From a virus (lineage: Duplodnaviria > Heunggongvirae > Uroviricota > Caudoviricetes), in the IMG/VR virus record IMGVR_UViG_2740892214_000001: a DNA stretch of 20,518 bases. The stretch is one strand, 5' to 3'. Position numbers and translations under genes: made by a program. Shown one piece after another: positions 3,096 through 13,368 of the stretch. Position 1 is the stretch's first letter. Each line of letters opens with the position of its first letter. The notes beneath the pieces were generated by a model. That model ran no database searches. It was given only the letters and a program-made list of their open reading frames with translations, and was not told the DNA's origin.

Positions 3096-3425
3096 CTATG
3101 CCACGACCTGTTCAAAATCTGCCGTTATGGTTACCCACAGCGCCCCCACGCTTGCCGACCATTTACGACAAACCACCCTGATCGGCTTCCAGTCATAAGG
3201 TGGCGTCCACTGAAATGCGCGGACGCCACCGTGCCGTTCCAGAAAGGCTTTCAAAGATGGGTGTTCACATTTACGAACACGTATCGTCACGCTGTAAGTC
3301 GACAACTGGTTATTCAGTCCCGCCGCACGACGCTGTTCATAACCATCGCCCAGCTTCACTGTCACCACTTTCGGCTCTGATACCACATTCATATCCGGGC
3401 GCACTTTCCAGTGAAACGTCTCCAT
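3096..3425 (-). CDS. M: Minor tail protein M
   Basis: 109-aa ORF METFHWKVRPDM...GDGYEQRRAAGLN...FQWTPPYDWKPIRVVCRKWS...FEQVV, lambda gpM-like; start ATG shares one base with the H stop (TAATG). Confidence 0.9.
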   Translation of the reverse strand: METFHWKVRPDMNVVSEPKVVTVKLGDGYEQRRAAGLNNQLSTYSVTIRVRKCEHPSLKAFLERHGGVRAFQWTPPYDWKPIRVVCRKWSASVGALWVTITADFEQVVA

Positions 3426-6400
3426 TACCGATATGCTCCACTTAACCGACCACCATCACGGGCCTGCTGTTGCATAAAGTCCGCTGCCGCTTTTTTCCCG
3501 AGGTCATAAACCACCTTCAGGGCAGCCGGACCTATCTGCCCGTTCGTGCCATCGTTATTGATCTCGATGTTGTACTGCGGGGCAAACATCGCCATACCTG
3601 AACCACCAATATCCGCCACAACCCCCAGCTTACCGTCAGCACCACGACGCAGAGGCAGAATGGCTTCAGGCCCAGCTTCCCCCATCACACCTGCACCTTT
3701 TGCAAAAGCAAAAAACGTCGGACGGTTAACCACCGTGCCACTGTAGCGACTCAAATCAGCAGACTGATAAACACCACCATCAGCATTGGGCGTCACACTG
3801 GCAGTTGCTGCACTCCCCCAGCCAAACGCCGAACCAATCCCCTTAACTGCCTGCATCATGGACATCTGAGCCATGATTTTTGCCAGATCAGAAAGGAGCG
3901 AGGCGGTAAAAGATTTGAAGTTCAGTTTTCCGGTGGTACAGAATGTTGCCAGTGCATTACCTGCACTATTAAATGCCGCTGTAAGCATCTGCTCCGCAGT
4001 GCCTGCCGCATTATCCGCATCTGCCGTGAAATTCTGAAACGCCCGCATGGCACCGTTTTTCCAGTTACCCTGAGCAATTTCAAGCTGTTGCCAGTAACGG
4101 CGATTCTCATTCAGTTGCCTGTTCAGGCTCTCCGTCAGCGCCTGCTCGGCCTTTCTGTAGTCATCCGTGTTATATGTCCCTTTCTGCTCACTATCCCGCC
4201 TCAACTGCTCCAGCTGTTGCTGGTATTTCTGGCGAAGGCTCAGTTGTACCTGATATCGCTGCCGCTGCTGATCACCCATACCCACCGTGGCGATATCCAG
4301 GTCATGTTGCTGACGCTGAGCGCGCTCTTCTTCAGCCAGTTGACTGGTCAGCTGAATTGTTTTTTTCTTCAGATCGTTGAGTGCCGTCTGTTTCTGAAGC
4401 TCCTGCTGTTTTACATCCAGCAGCGTCAGTGCCTGAATCAGTTCATCTTTACGGGCCAGCACACTCTTTTCATCTGCCGTCAGTTTTTTCCCGTCCAGGT
4501 CGCTGATGCGCTGCTGCAGAGCCAGAAGCTGTTTATGCGCTTCTGTCATCCTGTCAGTGGCAATGCCTGCTGACTGTCTGGCAGCAGCAATCTGCCCTTC
4601 CACCTGTGCCTGTTGCTGGCTGTACTGCAGCAATAACCGGGTGGCCTCATCATTACGGGTTTCGCGTGTTTTTTTCTTACCGGATGCCAGGGCTTTCTCG
4701 TAACGTTCATTTTCACGTTGTATCGCCGCATCCCTGACAGCCTGATCGGCGTACTGCATGGCATTAATACGCGCAATTTCACGCTGATGTCGTGCTGCTT
4801 CCGTTTCATTCATCCGGTTCAGTGCAGCATTTTCAGCATTACGGCGTTTCTGTTGCTCCTGATAATTCCGCTCTGCCTGCTCTTTTGCATCCTGCAAATC
4901 CTTCTGGCGTTTTTTCTCCTGAAGCTCGTTAAGACGCTGCTGATCGTATTCAACCTGAGAAGATGATGCCGTCCAGGGGAGTCTTTTCGCCCGCGATACT
5001 TTCTCCTGCAAAGTGGCAATCTGCGCATCCAGCGAATCTTCACGACCAATATTCATGGCCGCATCCCAGAACTGCTTCCACCAGTCAGACAAGGTTTGCA
5101 GCGTACTACCCAGCGCATTGAGGTTATTATCAATATCCGCAGTACGCCGACCGGTTTCCTCTGCCAGTGCAAACATGGCTATCCGTGCCGCATCACTGGA
5201 GCGCCCCTGCTCTCCAAGGACGCGTATCTGCTCAAGCTGAGTGGCAGTAAGAAAATGCAGCTCATTGTCCAGAGCCTTCGCGGCATTTACAGGATCATCC
5301 TTCAGCCGCTTAAACTGATTTATGGTATCGCTGATCGACTGGCCAACCGATCGCTCCATCTGTGCGGCAGCTCTCGCCACCATACCGATATCGTTTCCAC
5401 GAAATGCACCACTCCCCACCACCTGAGCCAGCGCACCGGCTGCAGCATGTTGCGTGATACCATTCCCGGAAATAGCACGACTGAGCGTCCACAGCTGCCC
5501 GGCAGTGACTCCGGCATAATGCCCCGTCAGCGACAGCTGGCGGTTAAATTCTTCCCCCTCCTTCTGACCGTCATACCAGGCTTTACCCAGACCATAGACG
5601 GCCGCGGTAATACCGCCAATAACCCCGCCCAGCATCATGCCTTTCGGTGACATCAGTGTGTCTATCCATCCGGCACGGTTAGCCAGCGTTATCCCGGATC
5701 CCCTCAGCGCCCCTAAATTGCCGCGGGCCAGTTCACCTATCAGAACGCCTATCTCCTGGCGGGCCGCTGCACTTTTCAGACCCAGCGAATGCGTGGCTTT
5801 TCCTGCCCGCTCCATTTTGCGGATATACACTTCTGCAGCACTGCTTACCCCCAGCTGGGCAGCCCTGGCACGAAGCAACTCAGAAGAAGAAAGATTCTGG
5901 CGGGTTGCCTGCTCTTTAAGCTGACGGATAAACGCCACTTTCTGTCGGGTAGCCTCTGCCTCAGCCTGCGTAAGAACACGGGTTTTCGCCGTAACCTCAG
6001 AAATCAGCGCCAGATAATCCTGCTGACCAATCCCGCCACTGTTTCTGGCCTGTCGGATCTGCTGCTGAATACGCTGTAACTCCTGCAACCCCGCACTGGC
6101 CTGTTTCACACTGTCAATCTGACGATAAAACGCGGCAGCCGCTTTATCCTGAGCCTCCGCCAGAGCCATGGCCTGTGCCTGTTCCTCGCGCATTTTCTGG
6201 CTCAGTGCCTCCATACGCTGGCGGGTTTGCTCCACCTCGCGGGCCATGCGTTCATGAGCCTGTGCGCTCTTCTCCACCGTCTGCGCATGGACGGATGCGG
6301 CTGTTGCAGCCGAAGAAGCCGCCTGCATTGTCTGCCGGGCGGCCTGAGTCTGACGCTCCATAAAACGCTGCATACGGGCAGAAGACCGTTCTGCATCGCT

Positions 6401-6499
6401 GGCTGCACCATTCAGAAGGTTTTTGATACGGGGAATTTCATTTTTAAACTCTGCCGCATCAATCCCCAAATCAATGACCAGGTTGGCTATCTGGTCCAT
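3425..6499 (-). CDS. H: Tail length tape measure protein (about 1024 aa)
   Basis: Start trimmed to ATG 6497..6499 (MDQIANLVIDLGIDAAEF, aligns with lambda H N-terminus) with GGAGG 7 nt upstream. C-terminus NNDGTNGQIGPAALKVVYD matches the lambda gpH C-terminus; long Q/A/E/R-rich presumably helical central region. Confidence 0.9.
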   Translation of the reverse strand: MDQIANLVIDLGIDAAEFKNEIPRIKNLLNGAASDAERSSARMQRFMERQTQAARQTMQAASSAATAASVHAQTVEKSAQAHERMAREVEQTRQRMEALSQKMREEQAQAMALAEAQDKAAAAFYRQIDSVKQASAGLQELQRIQQQIRQARNSGGIGQQDYLALISEVTAKTRVLTQAEAEATRQKVAFIRQLKEQATRQNLSSSELLRARAAQLGVSSAAEVYIRKMERAGKATHSLGLKSAAARQEIGVLIGELARGNLGALRGSGITLANRAGWIDTLMSPKGMMLGGVIGGITAAVYGLGKAWYDGQKEGEEFNRQLSLTGHYAGVTAGQLWTLSRAISGNGITQHAAAGALAQVVGSGAFRGNDIGMVARAAAQMERSVGQSISDTINQFKRLKDDPVNAAKALDNELHFLTATQLEQIRVLGEQGRSSDAARIAMFALAEETGRRTADIDNNLNALGSTLQTLSDWWKQFWDAAMNIGREDSLDAQIATLQEKVSRAKRLPWTASSSQVEYDQQRLNELQEKKRQKDLQDAKEQAERNYQEQQKRRNAENAALNRMNETEAARHQREIARINAMQYADQAVRDAAIQRENERYEKALASGKKKTRETRNDEATRLLLQYSQQQAQVEGQIAAARQSAGIATDRMTEAHKQLLALQQRISDLDGKKLTADEKSVLARKDELIQALTLLDVKQQELQKQTALNDLKKKTIQLTSQLAEEERAQRQQHDLDIATVGMGDQQRQRYQVQLSLRQKYQQQLEQLRRDSEQKGTYNTDDYRKAEQALTESLNRQLNENRRYWQQLEIAQGNWKNGAMRAFQNFTADADNAAGTAEQMLTAAFNSAGNALATFCTTGKLNFKSFTASLLSDLAKIMAQMSMMQAVKGIGSAFGWGSAATASVTPNADGGVYQSADLSRYSGTVVNRPTFFAFAKGAGVMGEAGPEAILPLRRGADGKLGVVADIGGSGMAMFAPQYNIEINNDGTNGQIGPAALKVVYDLGKKAAADFMQQQARDGGRLSGAYR

Positions 6500-7195
6500 A
6501 ACGCACACCTCCGGAAATACCTTCCCCAAGATGCATCAGTTCTTCGTCCGTTCGCTCCGGTATCCCGTTCTCTTCCGGTAAAAGGCTGAAATCAGCCACC
6601 GCAGCATCACTGCTGCCGGACACCATTCTCACGATCAATGCCTTCAGCGAGGCAAACTGCGCATCCATCCACACATCACTGAAGCTCTGCATCCGGAAAT
6701 AATCGCCCCACTCACCAAGCTCAGTGGCCGACATTTCCGACAGCATCCGCCGCCAGTCTGCCCGCCGGAACTCCCGGGCAAGCCGCATGACAAACTGCAT
6801 TTCCCGCGTCAGGACTTTTCCGGCGTCAGCACCTCATGCTCCAAATCCCCGGCATTCTCAATGGCTCCCATACCGCTCAGCGACAGAACCATCTCCGCCC
6901 CCGCTCCCAGGGCATCATACGACCATGTTGTAATAACGGATGCGCAAAGCGTCTCAACATCCTGAGACTGTTCCGCATTCCACAGTGAGCGGGAAACTAG
7001 CCAGGCATTGATATCCATCCCCATCCGCAGAAAAGCAATCTGTCGTTCAGCCTCCGGCAGTTCTCCCTCTTCGGCATCAAACTTTGCCGTTCGCTGCTGA
7101 ACAAACGCCAGATATTCAATTCTCTGCAGCCCGGACAGCTCACTGAGCACCACGGACTGCTTTTCATAATTAAACGTGCCCTGTTTCAGAAACAT
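6471..7195 (-). CDS. T: Tail assembly chaperone GT fusion made by programmed -1 ribosomal frameshift near the end of G (T segment 6471..about 6818)
   Basis: ORF 6471..6800 (REFRRADWRRMLSEMSATELGEWG...GISGGVRYG) matches lambda gpT and lies in the -1 frame relative to G. The T frame is open only from 6833 downward and G stops at 6809, so the shift must occur in that interval; the only slippery candidate is GGAAAAG at 6815..6821. Confidence 0.6.
6809..7195 (-). CDS. G: Tail assembly chaperone G
   Basis: MFLKQGTFNYEKQSVVLSELSGLQRIEYLA resembles lambda gpG (MFLK...LSELSALQRIEHLA). Start at second ATG of an ATGATG pair (alternative 7198); GGTGGAG SD just upstream. Track ORF N-terminal extension overlaps the upstream hairpin and is rejected. 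Confidence 0.85.
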   Translation of the reverse strand: MFLKQGTFNYEKQSVVLSELSGLQRIEYLAFVQQRTAKFDAEEGELPEAERQIAFLRMGMDINAWLVSRSLWNAEQSQDVETLCASVITTWSYDALGAGAEMVLSLSGMGAIENAGDLEHEVLTPEKS

Positions 7196-7211
7196 CATGT
7201 TCTCCACCTGC

Positions 7212-7235
7212 AAAAAAGCCCCGGATAATCGGGGC
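7212..7235 (-). terminator. Intrinsic terminator-like hairpin between V and G (minus strand)
   Basis: Minus strand reads GCCCCG-AUUAUC-CGGGGC followed by UUUUUUG, 6-bp GC stem; lies between V stop (7256) and the G SD/ATG. Confidence 0.5.
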
Positions 7236-7255
7236 AAATGATGAGTATCGTCCTG

Positions 7256-7999
7256 TTAACCTGCGGCGCTGACGGCCACCGTAGCCACTGCCACAAAATC
7301 GCCGTCAGAAGTCATGCCCACAATGCTGACACTGCCCTGCTTCACGCCTTTCACCGTGGCCACAAGCCCGTTCAGGGTCACCGTGGCAGTCTGTGGATCT
7401 GTCGAATGCACACTGATCGCTTTGTCACTGGCTCCGTCAGGTTTTACTGTAAAGGTCAGCGTGGTGGTTGCTCCCACTTTTACACTGGCAGATGCCGGTG
7501 CCACCGTCAGCCCGGTAACGCCCACGGTTTCAGTGCCTTCTTCTGCCAGATACGGACGCCCCACACCGCTGATTTTCACTGTGCGGGTCATCACGTCTTT
7601 TGAGGCAATGGTTTTACCCAGTGAACTCAGCCAGCCACGGAAAACATCAACAGTACCGTTGGGATATTTGATACGAAACGCGCAGACTTCACCGGAGTCG
7701 AACAACTGAACCAGTTTTTTCTGCCCGCTGTCACCCGGACGCCAGGCCAGCGTCGCCGAAGTATCACCGACGGATTTCTGCCCCTGGGTTGTCGTTTTCC
7801 AGTCTGCATCTTCATCATCGAGATAAGTGTCATCTTCTGCATCAGCGGTCATTTCGCCAGGCTGCAGATCCTTCACCATCGCAAGACGCAGCCAGTCAGT
7901 GTCCGATAAAGGGTTCGCAAACGCATCGCCCTTGCCGGTGTACATCCAGAACGTCGTTCCCGCACCTTTCGTTTTTGCCAGTGGATTTGGTGTGGTCAT
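7256..7999 (-). CDS. V: Major tail (tube) protein V with C-terminal Ig-like region
   Basis: Start trimmed to ATG 7997..7999 (MTTPNPLAKTKGAGTTFW) with AAGGAGGTG SD; strong match to lambda gpV (..GDTS.TLAW.PG...NGTVDVFRGW.SS.GK..). C-terminal ~90 aa Thr/Val/Ser-rich, as in the lambda gpV Ig-like extension. Confidence 0.9.
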   Translation of the reverse strand: MTTPNPLAKTKGAGTTFWMYTGKGDAFANPLSDTDWLRLAMVKDLQPGEMTADAEDDTYLDDEDADWKTTTQGQKSVGDTSATLAWRPGDSGQKKLVQLFDSGEVCAFRIKYPNGTVDVFRGWLSSLGKTIASKDVMTRTVKISGVGRPYLAEEGTETVGVTGLTVAPASASVKVGATTTLTFTVKPDGASDKAISVHSTDPQTATVTLNGLVATVKGVKQGSVSIVGMTSDGDFVAVATVAVSAAG

Positions 8000-9675: not shown

Positions 9676-11634
9676 TTACGCCGTACATTTCACCAGACCG
9701 CGGTGATCAACTGGCGCGACACCGGCGTCAATACGCACTTTCGTTGTCACGCCATCCACACTGAAGCCCTCCATCTGATCAATATATGGCGTATCCACAC
9801 CGTTGAGATAAGCCACTTCAATCGTATCGGAGCCTTTTGACGCAGCCAGGTAGAAGGTGGTCTGGCTGTTATCATCAAGACGAGGCTCTGCAATAACGGT
9901 CGCAAAATCTTTCACCGGGTTAATAATACCGGCGTTAATGTCAGCCCCCTTGACACTTGAGGAGCGAATGACCTGGTTAGCAACAGACTCCATCGCCGTC
10001 GGTACCAGTACGAACGCAGGACGAATATTCAGATGACGCTCCCCCTCTTTCTGAACACGCATCAACTGGCGGGCTTTATCCAGCGATGCCACGTCCATTG
10101 CAGCGTCCTCCAGTACGTTTGCATGTTTCGCTTTATCGAACAGACTTACATTATCTGTGGAGATTTTCGGGTTAGACGTCAGAATGGCATAAACCAGATC
10201 GGCAATAGTGGATTTCGCCGCACGGCCCAGCTTCATCGGGACATCGGTCAGCATATTCAGATCATCATTGATAATGGCCTGACGGGTGATACTGAACAGC
10301 TCGCCATAGGTCGCCAGTGCAATAGTGGCCTGTTTATCTCCGGTGGTGACGTATTTATATTCCGCCCCTTCACGCACCTGACGCAGAGCACTGAAGCCCC
10401 CCATACCCACGCGATGGGCAATTTTAAAATCAGACAACTGACCTTTCCGCGTCCACTGTTCATAGGTTTCAGGGGCATCCTCCCAGCCCTGCAGAATGGC
10501 TTTGTTCGCAACATCCAGCAGAATATTACCGAAGTCAGACGTACTGTGTGTGAACGCCGCACCGACCATCTGCATCGGGTTATAACCGGAAACCCCAATA
10601 CCCCGTTCAGTCAGTGACATACGGGCATATTCACGCAGGGTCATCCCGTTGTAGACATTATCACGTTCGGTTTTTTCAAATCCGGCACGCGCCATCAGCG
10701 CCTGGCGGATCCCGTCCCCCACAAAATTACCGTTACCGGCATAAATATGAGCCGGGGTATTTTTATTGGATGGCGTGGACTCGCGCCCCATCTCGTTCAA
10801 CAGCTTTTCGCGGGCCTGCTCCAGCGAACATTCAGGATCGGCAAGACACTGAGCCTGCAGCGTCTGATAACGCCCGCCAAACATGGCAAACAGATCATTA
10901 ATACCGTTTACACGCGCTTTTTGCTCTGCCAGTACCTGCGCACGGATACTGTTTTCATCCACCACGGGTGCTGCTGCCTGCACTGGCGTCCGGGAGGCTG
11001 CAGGTTCATTATCCTGTACGCGTGGAGCACTGTTGCGTGGCGGAGTAATCATGTTTCGAATGGATTCCGGCATCTTTTTAAATTCCTCTGTACGTTTTGA
11101 CTGAATACATGCCATTGCCTTAACGGCTGGCGTCACCTGATCAGCAAATCCATGTGCCAGACATTCGGCACCGGACATCCAGGTCTCATCCGCCAGCATG
11201 GCAGCAATTTCATCGGTGGTTTTCCCGGTTTTCTGTGCATAAGCGGGTAACAGAACCGCCTCAACCTTATCGAGCAGGTCGGCATAGGTGCGCATGTCCT
11301 CCGCATCACCGCCCGTAAAGCCAAATGGTTTATGAATCATCATGAAGGTGTTTTCCGGCATAATGACCGGTTTTCCCACCATCGCAATGACCGACGCCAT
11401 TGACGCCGCCACACCGTCGACATAAACGGTAATGGACGCACCATGTGTTTTCAGCGCATTAAAAATGGCGATGCCTTCAAAGACATCGCCACCCGGTGAA
11501 TTGATATGGAGATTAATGTGGGTGATATCGCCCAGTGCATTCAGATCACTGATAAACTGCTTCGCTGTAACACCCCAGAAACCAATCTCGTCATAAATAT
11601 AAATATCCGCGTCACTCTGGTGACCAGCCTGCAT
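9676..11634 (-). CDS. Fused prohead protease (ClpP/S14-like) - linker/scaffold - HK97-fold major capsid protein (about 652 aa)
   Basis: Start trimmed to ATG 11632..11634 (MQAGHQSDADIYIYDEIGFWG), the first ATG after the portal stop. N-terminal domain has ClpP-like motifs (IYIYDEIG, INSPGGDV, MIHKP); a Pro/Ala/Gln-rich linker follows; the C-terminal ~330 aa resemble HK97-type major capsid proteins. Confidence 0.8.
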   Translation of the reverse strand: MQAGHQSDADIYIYDEIGFWGVTAKQFISDLNALGDITHINLHINSPGGDVFEGIAIFNALKTHGASITVYVDGVAASMASVIAMVGKPVIMPENTFMMIHKPFGFTGGDAEDMRTYADLLDKVEAVLLPAYAQKTGKTTDEIAAMLADETWMSGAECLAHGFADQVTPAVKAMACIQSKRTEEFKKMPESIRNMITPPRNSAPRVQDNEPAASRTPVQAAAPVVDENSIRAQVLAEQKARVNGINDLFAMFGGRYQTLQAQCLADPECSLEQAREKLLNEMGRESTPSNKNTPAHIYAGNGNFVGDGIRQALMARAGFEKTERDNVYNGMTLREYARMSLTERGIGVSGYNPMQMVGAAFTHSTSDFGNILLDVANKAILQGWEDAPETYEQWTRKGQLSDFKIAHRVGMGGFSALRQVREGAEYKYVTTGDKQATIALATYGELFSITRQAIINDDLNMLTDVPMKLGRAAKSTIADLVYAILTSNPKISTDNVSLFDKAKHANVLEDAAMDVASLDKARQLMRVQKEGERHLNIRPAFVLVPTAMESVANQVIRSSSVKGADINAGIINPVKDFATVIAEPRLDDNSQTTFYLAASKGSDTIEVAYLNGVDTPYIDQMEGFSVDGVTTKVRIDAGVAPVDHRGLVKCTA

Positions 11635-11647
11635 CCTGAACCAGGAA

Positions 11648-13156
11648 TTATTCTTCGGACTGGTCGTCGGTGTGCTGCGGCTCCTGTCGTTTCGTTGCGG
11701 CACTGCTGCCTCCTTTATCACTGGCCGGATCGGTATCAAATACCAGATCCAGCTTGCGGTTTTCATCAATTTCGGCCTTGCGCCGACGTTTGACATCATC
11801 CGGATTACGACCACCTGCACGTACCCAGTCTGATTCTGTCGCCGCTCCACCACGAATCTGGATTTTCCAGGCCTCAGCCTCCTTAACAGGGTCAATCCAC
11901 GGCATCACCGGTCCGGAATACACCGCGGTATACAGTGAAGAACGGTCAAGATCGCGGGGTAGCCTGATAACACCGGATGCCACAGCCTGTTTCAGCCAGG
12001 CACGGTACATCGGGCGGGTGACGGCACCAATAAACCAGTCCTGCAGGATCAGGTAGCCATCAGTGGATTCAACCAGCTCCTGACGCTGGGCGCTGTAAGT
12101 GCCGTTATAGTTGCGCGCTGTACTGGAAAAACTCAGACGACTGCCAGCCGCCACTGCACGCAACTGACCATTACGAAAAGTTTCAAGATTAGGATTGGGG
12201 CGATCCGACTTCACCATTCCGATTTCTTCGCCGGGTTTCAGATCGTCGTAAATAATGCCTGGCTGAATGGTAAGCTCGCGTTCCTTATCCTTGCTGCCAT
12301 TACCATCCGGTTCATAGCTCTGCCCGTCGCCTTTGCGGATGTACATCCCCAGAGCAGCGGCGATCCTTGCTGCAGTCAGCTCATAATCTTCATAATCTTT
12401 CAGGGCACTGAGGCGGATCAGCACACCGGACAACAAAGACGTCCCGCGCATCTGGTGCAGACGGCGAACAAATTTAAGATGCAGCATTCGCTCTGCATCC
12501 ACTTCTTTGGTTTCCATCTGCCGTCCGGATACGGGACGGCTTTTATACACCAGATATTTTTCGGGACGCCCCCAGTCATCAACAAACACGCCCTGATTCA
12601 GCCTGTTGCTCTCATCACTGGTCATGGGAATAAAGTCTGGCTCGAGCGCCTCCAGCCAGAAATGAACACCGGCAGAAGGCGTCAGGCTGTTTATGCGCCC
12701 GGAAACCATCTGGGCAAACACCTCACCATCGCGCAGCCAGGTACGCAGCATCAGACGTTCCAGCATCGGACGGGTAAACTGCCCGGTGACTTCCGGGCTG
12801 ACAGACCATTCACTCCATCGGGTGCGAATCTCCGCTGCCAGATCACGGGCAATGGCCCCATTGCGTAATACCGGATGTGGCTCGACAATAATCCCGTTTT
12901 TCCCCACCACCCGTTCTTCCAGCTTGTCAAATACACCAATAACCAGATCGTGGTTGTTATCAAGGTAACGGGCCTGCTCACGTAACGACACGGCCCCGTA
13001 CTGGCTTAGCTGGTCGGCAGTTCGGTTCTCCCGTCGGGCTTTGTGTGTCCGCGTCGTTTTTACGGCTTCATAAGCCTGGATCACCGCACGGGAACGCAGC
13101 CTTGCCGCTTTCCATCTAGGTGAAAAAACGCCAATCACATCATCAAGAATTGCCAT
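11648..13156 (-). CDS. Portal protein
   Basis: About 502 aa; start trimmed to ATG 13154..13156 (MAILDDVIGVF), which overlaps the upstream gene stop by one base. Sits between terminase/W and the capsid gene; acidic C-terminus. Family (lambda gpB-like) is inferred, not verified. Confidence 0.8.
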   Translation of the reverse strand: MAILDDVIGVFSPRWKAARLRSRAVIQAYEAVKTTRTHKARRENRTADQLSQYGAVSLREQARYLDNNHDLVIGVFDKLEERVVGKNGIIVEPHPVLRNGAIARDLAAEIRTRWSEWSVSPEVTGQFTRPMLERLMLRTWLRDGEVFAQMVSGRINSLTPSAGVHFWLEALEPDFIPMTSDESNRLNQGVFVDDWGRPEKYLVYKSRPVSGRQMETKEVDAERMLHLKFVRRLHQMRGTSLLSGVLIRLSALKDYEDYELTAARIAAALGMYIRKGDGQSYEPDGNGSKDKERELTIQPGIIYDDLKPGEEIGMVKSDRPNPNLETFRNGQLRAVAAGSRLSFSSTARNYNGTYSAQRQELVESTDGYLILQDWFIGAVTRPMYRAWLKQAVASGVIRLPRDLDRSSLYTAVYSGPVMPWIDPVKEAEAWKIQIRGGAATESDWVRAGGRNPDDVKRRRKAEIDENRKLDLVFDTDPASDKGGSSAATKRQEPQHTDDQSEE

Positions 13157-13368
13157 CAGAACCTCGCCAGCCGGTACCCGGGATGCCCCCGTCGTCGTGT
13201 AATCAGAGCCGCAAGGCGGCGCTCCCACTCCTGCCGTCCCTGCCGGATCTCAGATAAGTTTTCCATGGTCATCTGCTGACCATTAAAGGTGACGGATTTT
13301 CCGTCCAGCACCGCCATTTCAGCTTCCATATAACGCTGAATCATGGCTTCGATATCATTCTGGTTCAT
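13156..13368 (-). CDS. gpW-like head-tail joining / head completion protein
   Basis: 70 aa (MNQNDIEAMIQRYMEAEMAVLDGKSVTFNGQQMT...RRRGHPGY); size, position between large terminase and portal, and the C-terminal RRRG motif resemble lambda gpW. Start ATG overlaps the large terminase stop (ATGA). Confidence 0.55.
   Translation of the reverse strand: MNQNDIEAMIQRYMEAEMAVLDGKSVTFNGQQMTMENLSEIRQGRQEWERRLAALITRRRGHPGYRLARF

Follow-up and report, generated by a model that had tools for sequence, protein, structure and literature searches.

G GAA AAG as the probable -1 frameshift site of the G/T tail chaperone genes in a lambda-like Escherichia coli prophage

Introduction

In phage lambda, the tail assembly chaperone genes G and T give two products, gpG and gpGT, at a ratio of approximately 30:1 that is critical for tail assembly (PMC5009743), and the -1 frameshift heptamer of the pair, G GGA AAG, counts among the best heptamers (Sharma et al. 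2014, PMC4066793). Here we describe the corresponding gene pair in the IMG/VR virus record IMGVR_UViG_2740892214_000001, a stretch of 20,518 nucleotides (nt) that was analyzed as a whole and is referred to below as the window. Its G and T reading frames meet at a related heptamer, G GAA AAG, which an earlier inspection of the letters alone (the original prediction) had singled out as the site of a G/GT programmed -1 frameshift.

Several lines of published work bear on such a site. The tetramer A_AAG is by far the most shift-prone in E. coli (Sharma et al. 2014, PMC4066793), functional hexanucleotide sites of the type NNA_AAG are known from cdd and IS1222 (Atkins et al. 2016 review, PMC5009743), and G_GA is tolerated as X_XX in several eukaryotic virus groups (PMC5009743). 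G GAA AAG itself has served as a "less slippery" comparison to G GGA AAG, with the second-position mismatch of the glutamate transfer RNA (tRNA-Glu) noted (Peng et al. 2019, PMC6924986). In a data set without second-position changes, a first-position change from A.U to G.U costs approximately 5 kJ/mol and a change from G.S to A.S in the aminoacyl (A) site gains approximately 2.9 kJ/mol (Bock et al. 2019, PMC6787027). The genome search of Sharma et al. 2014 was made with X_XXZ_ZZN patterns only (PMC4066793) and would therefore miss GGAAAAG. Finally, Shine-Dalgarno (SD) sequences stimulate -1 shifts at a spacing of 9-14 nt (PMC5009743).

The G/T junction of the window

The window covers the head-tail morphogenesis region of a lambda-like E. 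coli prophage, with its genes on the minus strand. The order is V (7999..7256), G (7198..6809), the T frame (6833..6471) and H (6499..3425), which places an overlapping G/T pair after the major tail gene and before the tape measure gene. The junction is made up of the following features.

6809..7198, minus strand: gene G, tail assembly chaperone; 129 amino acids from the ATG at 7198 (128 from the ATG at 7195 chosen by the Prokaryotic Genome Annotation Pipeline, PGAP); stop codon TGA 6811..6809
6834..6836, minus strand: TGA in the -1 (T) frame; a shift is permitted only downstream of it
6815..6821, minus strand: putative shift heptamer G GAA AAG; 0-frame codons GAA (6820..6818) and AAG (6817..6815), -1 codons GGA and AAA
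6471..6815, minus strand: T-frame segment that would be read after the shift, 114 codons from GTC 6815..6813 to the stop at 6473..6471
6471..7198, minus strand: conceptual GT fusion of 242 amino acids with the junction ...HEVLTPEK/VLTREMQF...

The product of gene G matches Phage_TAC_2 (Pfam PF06894, E=1.8e-39) and bears the RefSeq name "gpG: phage tail assembly chaperone G"; the 3' end of the gene reads ...CTG ACG CCG GAA AAG TCC TGA. T is read in the -1 frame relative to G; past the TGA at 6836..6834, this frame has no further stop until 6473..6471. Together with the G stop at 6811..6809, this TGA confines any G-to-T shift to the 25 nt at 6833..6809. The T segment matches Phage_tail_T (Pfam PF06223, E=5e-15) and is annotated by PGAP as a separate gene comprising 6800..6471 only. 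Its homology to lambda, however, reaches as far as the heptamer, upstream of any T start codon, and the T frames align past the heptamer without gaps (GKVLTREMQF in the window, GKVFDGELSF in lambda). We constructed the conceptual GT by reading 7198..6815 in frame 0, base 6815 twice, and 6815..6474 in frame -1. A single BLASTP alignment to lambda gpGT runs across the junction (34% identity, E=1e-41), and Pfam finds both the Phage_TAC_2 and the Phage_tail_T domain in this one polypeptide.

Where within the 25 nt could a ribosome slip? The seven 0-frame codons of the interval and their -1 counterparts are GTG>GGT, CTG>GCT, ACG>GAC, CCG>GCC, GAA>GGA, AAG>AAA and TCC>GTC. Only AAG>AAA retains codon positions 1 and 2; GAA>GGA retains positions 1 and 3 with a G.U pair at position 2, and the remaining codons retain at most one position. 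G GAA AAG departs from the canonical X XXY YYZ pattern (lambda has G GGA AAG), although its YYZ half, A AAG, conforms. It also fits NNA_AAG, as GAA AAG lies in the G frame and tRNA-Lys is able to re-pair from AAG to AAA. The original prediction thus withstands inspection here: its G stop (6809..6811), T-frame stop (6834..6836) and 25-nt interval (6809-6833) all hold on the minus strand, and codon-by-codon re-pairing confirms that G GAA AAG at 6815..6821 is the only slippery-like site between them. It was also correct that the peptidyl (P) site tRNA would be mismatched at position 2 after slippage, tRNA-Glu moving from GAA to GGA with a G.U pair in the middle, which is also how PMC6924986 describes it.

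The heptamer aligns with the position of G GGA AAG in lambda; in phage 434, which was read in place of lambda, the corresponding sequence is GCG GGA AAG TGT. After the heptamer, the -1 frames match residue for residue, GKVFDGELSFALKLAREMGRPDWRAML in lambda against GKVLTREMQFVMRLAREFRRADWRRML in the window. GGAAAAG occurs five times in the window on both strands, against 2.67 expected from shuffles. The shuffle expectation is approximately 6.5e-5 per position, and the probability that a given 25-nt interval holds a copy in frame is approximately 4e-4; a chance origin of the heptamer is therefore unlikely.

Conservation of the junction among relatives

To place the junction among its relatives, we gathered sequences from a phage collection, IMG/VR and genome assemblies. 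An IMG/VR scan ranked on the G of the window returned 80 near-identical loci and was re-seeded with divergent sequences for diversity; a single-protein scan of genome contigs yielded 7 near-identical loci and added no diversity. The resulting clade, of cdtI/mEp460/Gifsy-1 type, comprises 261 loci with 47 distinct junctions and was analyzed via 16 representative upstream-tail variants.

The sequence CCGGAAAAG is present in all 261 loci (47 distinct junctions), at G identities down to 54%, and is followed in every one of them by one codon (TCC, CCC, CCG or TCA) and then a TGA or TAA stop. The 15-20 residues that precede Pro-Glu-Lys, on the other hand, are hypervariable in both sequence and length. 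Across the 261 loci, CCG GAA AAG is unchanged even at synonymous positions: the proline codon is CCG, the glutamate codon GAA and not GAG, and the lysine codon AAG and not AAA. As the -1 frame upstream of the slip is never translated, this invariance points to selection on the nucleotides themselves, i.e. on the slip site. The alignment of homologous G/T junctions that the original prediction had called for therefore bears it out, and its proviso that a canonical GGGAAAG might be hidden by a sequencing error is ruled out by GGAAAAG in 261 of 261 related loci and by the presence of the junction in E. coli genomes.

The isolated phages cdtI, mEp460, Ayreon and phi458 bear the junction as well. 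The G-T region of the window is 97.6-99.5% identical to that of phi458, Ayreon, cdtI and mEp460. Among 5426 complete E. coli genomes, 1846, O157:H7 included, matched the 251-nt junction, nearly all of them at 95% identity or more.

Two database proteins from E. coli assemblies, P0046 and P0032, are natural in-frame G-T fusions created by deletion, with the joints ...SYDA/GKVLTREMQ... and ...LSLSG/FVMRLAREF..., respectively. Both probably come from decaying prophages. The joint in P0046 shows a GCC microhomology exactly at the heptamer.

G GAA AAG in other phages

We found G GAA AAG at the homologous site in phi80, mEp043, an N15-like Enterobacter phage, Klebsiella phage Kp4865-4 and Providencia phage PSTCR8lys. 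In lambda, Perceval and Stx2a phages the site reads G GGA AAG, and in Stx1 phages A AAA AAG. In the N15 record (NC_001901), positions 10027..10033 carry, for the homologous genes 14/15, a misc_feature labeled "slippery sequence for -1 translational frameshift", which we read as GGAAAAG; the Gifsy-1 record describes T as "part of ... gpG by translational frameshifting". An IMG/VR sample seeded with N15 G gave 63 distinct junctions, of which approximately 46 have GGAAAAG, the commonest form, and 13 have GGGAAAG; AAAAAAG, GGCAAAG and AGAAAAG occur once each, and one junction has a truncated G (L347). With the exception of this truncated G, all 63 keep the A_AAG core, and it is the 5' part that varies.

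Judged from these records and alignments, GGAAAAG is an already known and ordinary shift site: it belongs to a known kind of recoding and a known gene pair, is annotated in N15 and is widespread. Our literature search found no paper describing GGAAAAG as a tail-gene slip site. In calling the heptamer non-canonical, the original prediction was right that it differs from the GGGAAAG of lambda; the novelty that this implied does not stand, as the form is common in nature and annotated in N15.

Some natural variants deserve mention. Single junctions have G GCA AAG (L292) or A GAA AAG (L305) at the homologous site, where P-site re-pairing is lost and A_AAG kept. The distance from the heptamer to the G stop is specific to the clade, with values of 0, 3 or 15 nt (15 nt in lambda and N15). 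In PSTCR8lys (L264:1069-1078) and Kp4865-4 (L269), the G stop follows the heptamer directly (G GAA AAG TAG) or one codon later.

We also searched IMG/VR for a GGGAAAG version of the clade cassette (GCCGGGAAAGTCCTGA), and none was found among relatives of cdtI and lambda. The search did match CCG GGA AAG TCC TGA in 67 environmental contigs (L354-L420, e.g. L355:5455-6146, plus strand), which form one family unrelated to lambda G/T. Its members have an open reading frame (ORF) of approximately 133 amino acids ending in ...PPGKS* and a -1 frame reading GKVL[SN]PGW...RALQYYHC..., 81-84 amino acids long in most. At L355, the sole locus checked, the -1 frame stops just before the ATG of the next gene. 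Neither part, nor any of five neighboring ORFs, had a Pfam match, and the two parts had no PHROG match. The pair looks like an undescribed frameshift pair of the chaperone type.

A Shine-Dalgarno-like element upstream of the heptamer

One further feature lies at the upstream edge of the permitted interval.

6830..6835, minus strand: SD-like sequence GAGGTG, a candidate upstream stimulator; GAGG core 10 nt upstream of the heptamer; predicted duplex with the anti-SD -9.2 kcal/mol

To determine whether this is a general property of the clade, we aligned the 16 divergent junctions on the heptamer and scanned them in 8-nt windows against the 3' end of 16S ribosomal RNA (rRNA). The anti-SD energy has a sharp minimum in windows ending 7-10 nt before the heptamer (mean -5.4 to -6.1 kcal/mol, compared with approximately -1 to -3 elsewhere), where the clade carries GAGG, GGAG or AGG 10-14 nt upstream of the heptamer. 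The mean block minimum over the 16 junctions is -6.66 kcal/mol, as opposed to -3.33 +/- 0.62 kcal/mol when the codons of the tail are shuffled (0 of 5000 shuffles); with 11 lineages counted as independent, the same null gives p=2.5e-4. Codon choice follows the same trend. Glutamate codons at positions -4 to -6 are GAG rather than GAA in a ratio of 14:3, against 3:17 elsewhere in the tail (Fisher 5.6e-5), or 9:3 against 2:10 by independent lineages (p=0.012). The GAGG of the window, 10 nt upstream, thus falls within the 9-14 nt at which a 16S-complementary sequence lies 5' of the shift site in dnaX-type stimulation.

The element is specific to this clade. Lambda, Stx, N15, phi80, mEp043, Klebsiella and Providencia junctions have none at that distance (block minimum -3.6 kcal/mol or weaker), and only two of the N15-seeded junctions reach approximately -5.7 to -5.8 kcal/mol. 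Its role as a stimulator is suggestive, not proven, given that the lineages compared are related. We found no description of such a dnaX-like layout for tail chaperone frameshifts of phages in the literature searched, and this feature of the cdtI/Gifsy clade may be new.

Other candidate signals were considered. Use of the element as a ribosome-binding site for T is ruled out by spacing, as it lies 31 nt from the ATG at 6800 and no start codon occurs 5-10 nt after it. A hungry codon following AAG was rejected because the next codon varies (TCC, CCC, CCG, TCA, TGT, TAC, CTC or a direct stop) and is not consistently rare. No stable stem-loop of the dnaX type is present 5-9 nt 3' of the shift site, and an Rfam scan of 6400..7300 returned only a chance-level match to a long non-coding RNA (E=0.89). 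In Gifsy-1 (L005:1566-1572), an additional in-frame GAA AAG (AGT GAA AAG) is found 21 nt upstream of the conserved copy; it adjoins the opening of the -1 frame, being overlapped by the -1 TGA, and the AAGGA that follows doubles as the SD-like element.

Proposed mechanism and alternative explanations

We consider it highly probable that ribosomes undergo a programmed -1 frameshift here, in a tail assembly chaperone pair like that of lambda, with a slip on A_AAG and, in this clade, probable help from the SD-like element. The reading as a lambda-type G/GT shift, already put forward in the original prediction, is supported by the gene identities, the placement between V and H, the -1 phase, the homologous placement of the heptamer and its nucleotide invariance in a hypervariable tail. 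In such a scheme, most ribosomes would translate G to its stop and release the 129-amino-acid chaperone, and a minority would slip back one base with GAA in the P site and AAG in the A site. Within the shift-prone A_AAG core, tRNA-Lys would re-pair perfectly from AAG to AAA; tRNA-Glu would re-pair to GGA with a G.U pair in the middle, or the mismatch would simply be tolerated. Shiftiness is reportedly correlated with the wobble propensity of the P-site tRNA. Translation would continue in the T frame to give the 242-amino-acid GT (...TPEK-VLTREMQF...), which, like lambda gpGT, would connect the tail tube protein with the tape measure protein. Pairing of GAGG(TG), 10 nt upstream, with 16S rRNA, as in dnaX, would probably aid the intrinsically weak heptamer in the cdtI/mEp460/Gifsy-1 clade. 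We infer a low-efficiency slip of two tRNAs or of the A-site tRNA, thermodynamically plausible and in need of kinetic help. The efficiency expected here is a few percent or less, compared with approximately 50% or more in dnaX.

A more specific idea, to which we give slightly less than even weight, is that this clade compensates for the weak G GAA AAG by an internal SD-like element that is kept 10-13 nt upstream within the hypervariable, indel-prone tail of G, partly through the choice of GAG over GAA, with the 0-frame stop placed one codon after the site.

Several results weigh against these interpretations. In vivo, A_AAG alone gives 0.147% frameshifting over a background of 0.112%, and reaches 5.6% with a strong pseudoknot (PMC4066793); in a reconstituted E. 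coli system with wild-type elongation factor G (EF-G) and no stimulator, G GAA AAG yielded mainly the 0-frame product (PMC6924986). The folds of 6850..6700 and 6814..6730 are no better than shuffles (z of -0.59 and -0.25), and RNAalifold on the 16 divergent junctions gave a consensus of -7.9 kcal/mol with a covariation term of only -0.41, i.e. almost no covariation. As for the SD-like element, a null of synonymous resampling that keeps the amino-acid order lowers its significance over the 11 lineages to p=0.023, and part of the signal is thus amino-acid composition. Several lineages have a weak element (-2.9 to -5.8 kcal/mol), and N15 and phi80 phages with the same heptamer lack it. Finally, every close public record of the module shows T as a separate gene.

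This last observation would suit a T made as a free protein of 109 amino acids from an independent or termination-coupled start at ATG 6800..6798, with the heptamer kept for other reasons. The ATG lies 8 nt after the G stop, and every clade member has some T-frame ATG within approximately 25 nt of that stop. Yet the position of the first such ATG is not conserved (it falls in REMQ, FVM or VMN, and L102 is without the FVM methionine), and a properly spaced SD is missing: GGGAA directly adjoins ATG 6800, which 31 nt separate from GAGG. No sequence has a T-frame stop between the heptamer and the G stop, and homology to lambda, an invariant glutamate included, starts upstream of ATG 6800. A free T would also leave the synonymous-site invariance of CCG GAA AAG unexplained, and in lambda T is made only as GT, as has long been established (Levin, Hendrix and Casjens 1993, Xu et al. 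2004, 2013, cited in PMC5009743). We regard a free T as improbable. Fusion of G and T by RNA polymerase slippage on the run of four A in the heptamer has next to no likelihood, because bacteria need approximately 8-9 or more identical bases, the run is never longer than four in any relative, and lambda uses ribosomal slippage. It is nearly as hard to credit that the site is non-functional or decaying, a lambda heptamer mutated to GGAAAAG in a defective prophage and devoid of frameshifting. Many E. coli prophages are indeed defective, in-frame deletion fusions of G and T exist in databases (P0032, P0046) and the heptamer is intrinsically weak; but the junction recurs in isolated phages (97.6-99.5% identity), the heptamer does not change across deep divergence and is common to independent clades, and no GGGAAAG version of the cassette turned up among related IMG/VR phages.

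A different question is whether a single tRNA slips, tRNA-Lys on A_AAG either in the A site or in the P site with the next codon waiting, so that the site would be a hexanucleotide NNA_AAG and both the first heptamer position and the P-site codon would be irrelevant. The invariance of the A_AAG core, the variants A GAA AAG (L305) and G GCA AAG (L292) without P-site re-pairing, and the functional CGA_AAG sites of cdd and IS1222 (PMC5009743) speak for it. However, the base before GAA is G in 47 of 47 clade junctions and in all but one of the approximately 47 N15-seeded NGAAAAG junctions. Its retention at the synonymous third position of Pro, Ala or Leu codons suggests that heptamer position 1 matters, which leaves a slip of tRNA-Lys alone somewhat unlikely. 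The protein product would be the same, and this possibility is a refinement of the programmed frameshift rather than a true alternative to it.

The programmed G/GT frameshift has a practical consequence for annotation. The records that we inspected (cdtI, mEp460, Ayreon and the RefSeq O157:H7 chromosome) list T as a stand-alone gene and have no GT fusion, partly because searches limited to X_XXY_YYZ (e.g. Sharma et al. 2014) skip GGAAAAG by design. GT is thus omitted from a tail module that about one third of complete E. coli genomes and several isolated phages carry, although the slip site would set the G:GT ratio. No natural G/T shift site is commoner in our sample than the heptamer that Peng et al. 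2019 used as a "less slippery" control. With a P-site middle G.U, an upstream SD and a nearby stop as possible tuners of low-level frameshifting, the site offers a convenient natural system in which to measure their effects. Should the proposed SD compensation be true, the means of setting the G:GT ratio would differ between lambdoid lineages. The GGAAAAG site as such does not overturn current understanding.

Neighboring genes

The G/T pair is flanked by the following features.

7256..7999, minus strand: gene V, major tail tube protein with a C-terminal Big_2 domain, upstream neighbor of G (Pfam Phage_TTP_12, 1.5e-66, and Big_2; annotation)
7210..7235, minus strand: GC-rich terminator-like hairpin GCCCCGATTATCCGGGGC followed by TTTTTT, between V and G
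3425..6499, minus strand: gene H, tape measure protein; ATG at 6499, with 29 nt shared with the end of T (Pfam TMP_2, TMP_4 and Tape_meas_lam_C; annotation)

Across the window, Pfam assigned terminase gpA, a lambda-family portal, a fusion of ClpP protease and capsid, Z, U, V, G, T, the tape measure H, L and I. The Ayreon and mEp460 records label the hairpin between V and G a terminator, and the N15 record labels it a putative one; it probably lowers transcription of G/GT/H relative to V. The fusion is a 739-amino-acid ORF (9676-11895, minus strand) that joins a ClpP-type protease domain to a capsid domain (Phage_capsid_4); if the most upstream start is taken, it shares approximately 250 nt with the portal ORF (11648-13228, minus strand). 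This prophage late region also encodes a 350-amino-acid N6/N4 DNA methylase (PF01555; 18155-19207, minus strand), which lies beyond the terminase genes, upstream of them on that strand.

Comparison with known frameshift systems

Among well-characterized sites, dnaX of E. coli (A AAA AAG, with an upstream SD and a downstream stem-loop) resembles the window in its 3' A_AAG and in an SD-like sequence at a stimulating spacing; the window differs in its weaker 5' heptamer half and in having no conserved downstream stem-loop. Bacillus subtilis cdd (A_CGA_AAG) and IS1222 (G_CGA_AAG) share with it an A-site tRNA-Lys that moves from AAG to AAA and a preceding codon that ends in A without canonical re-pairing. 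Efficiency at sites of this type is low and depends on stimulators (PMC5009743). Unlike them, the P-site GAA of the window still forms two Watson-Crick pairs and a G.U pair in the -1 frame.

The likeness to lambda extends to the gene pair, the -1 direction, the position of the site, the residues after the shift (GKV...E..F..LARE..DWR.ML) and the lack of a conserved downstream structure. However, heptamer position 3 is A in the window and G in lambda, which places tRNA-Glu with a middle G.U pair in the P site instead of tRNA-Gly. The lambda G stop comes 15 nt after the site (3 nt in the window), and lambda has no SD-like element (block minimum -2.1 kcal/mol).

Closest in the heptamer itself are genes 14/15 of N15 and their counterparts in phi80 and mEp043, where a homologous G (Phage_TAC_2)/T pair lies between the major tail and tape measure genes with the identical heptamer at the homologous position. 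At the protein level, the G of the window is only approximately 33-35% identical to those of phi80, mEp043 and lambda. The heptamer precedes the G stop by 15 nt in N15 and by 3 nt in the window, and its upstream context is CCNGTTACNGC in N15 as opposed to (A/T)C(G/A)CC in the window clade. N15 and phi80 have no SD-like element at 6-11 nt, whereas the window clade has one.

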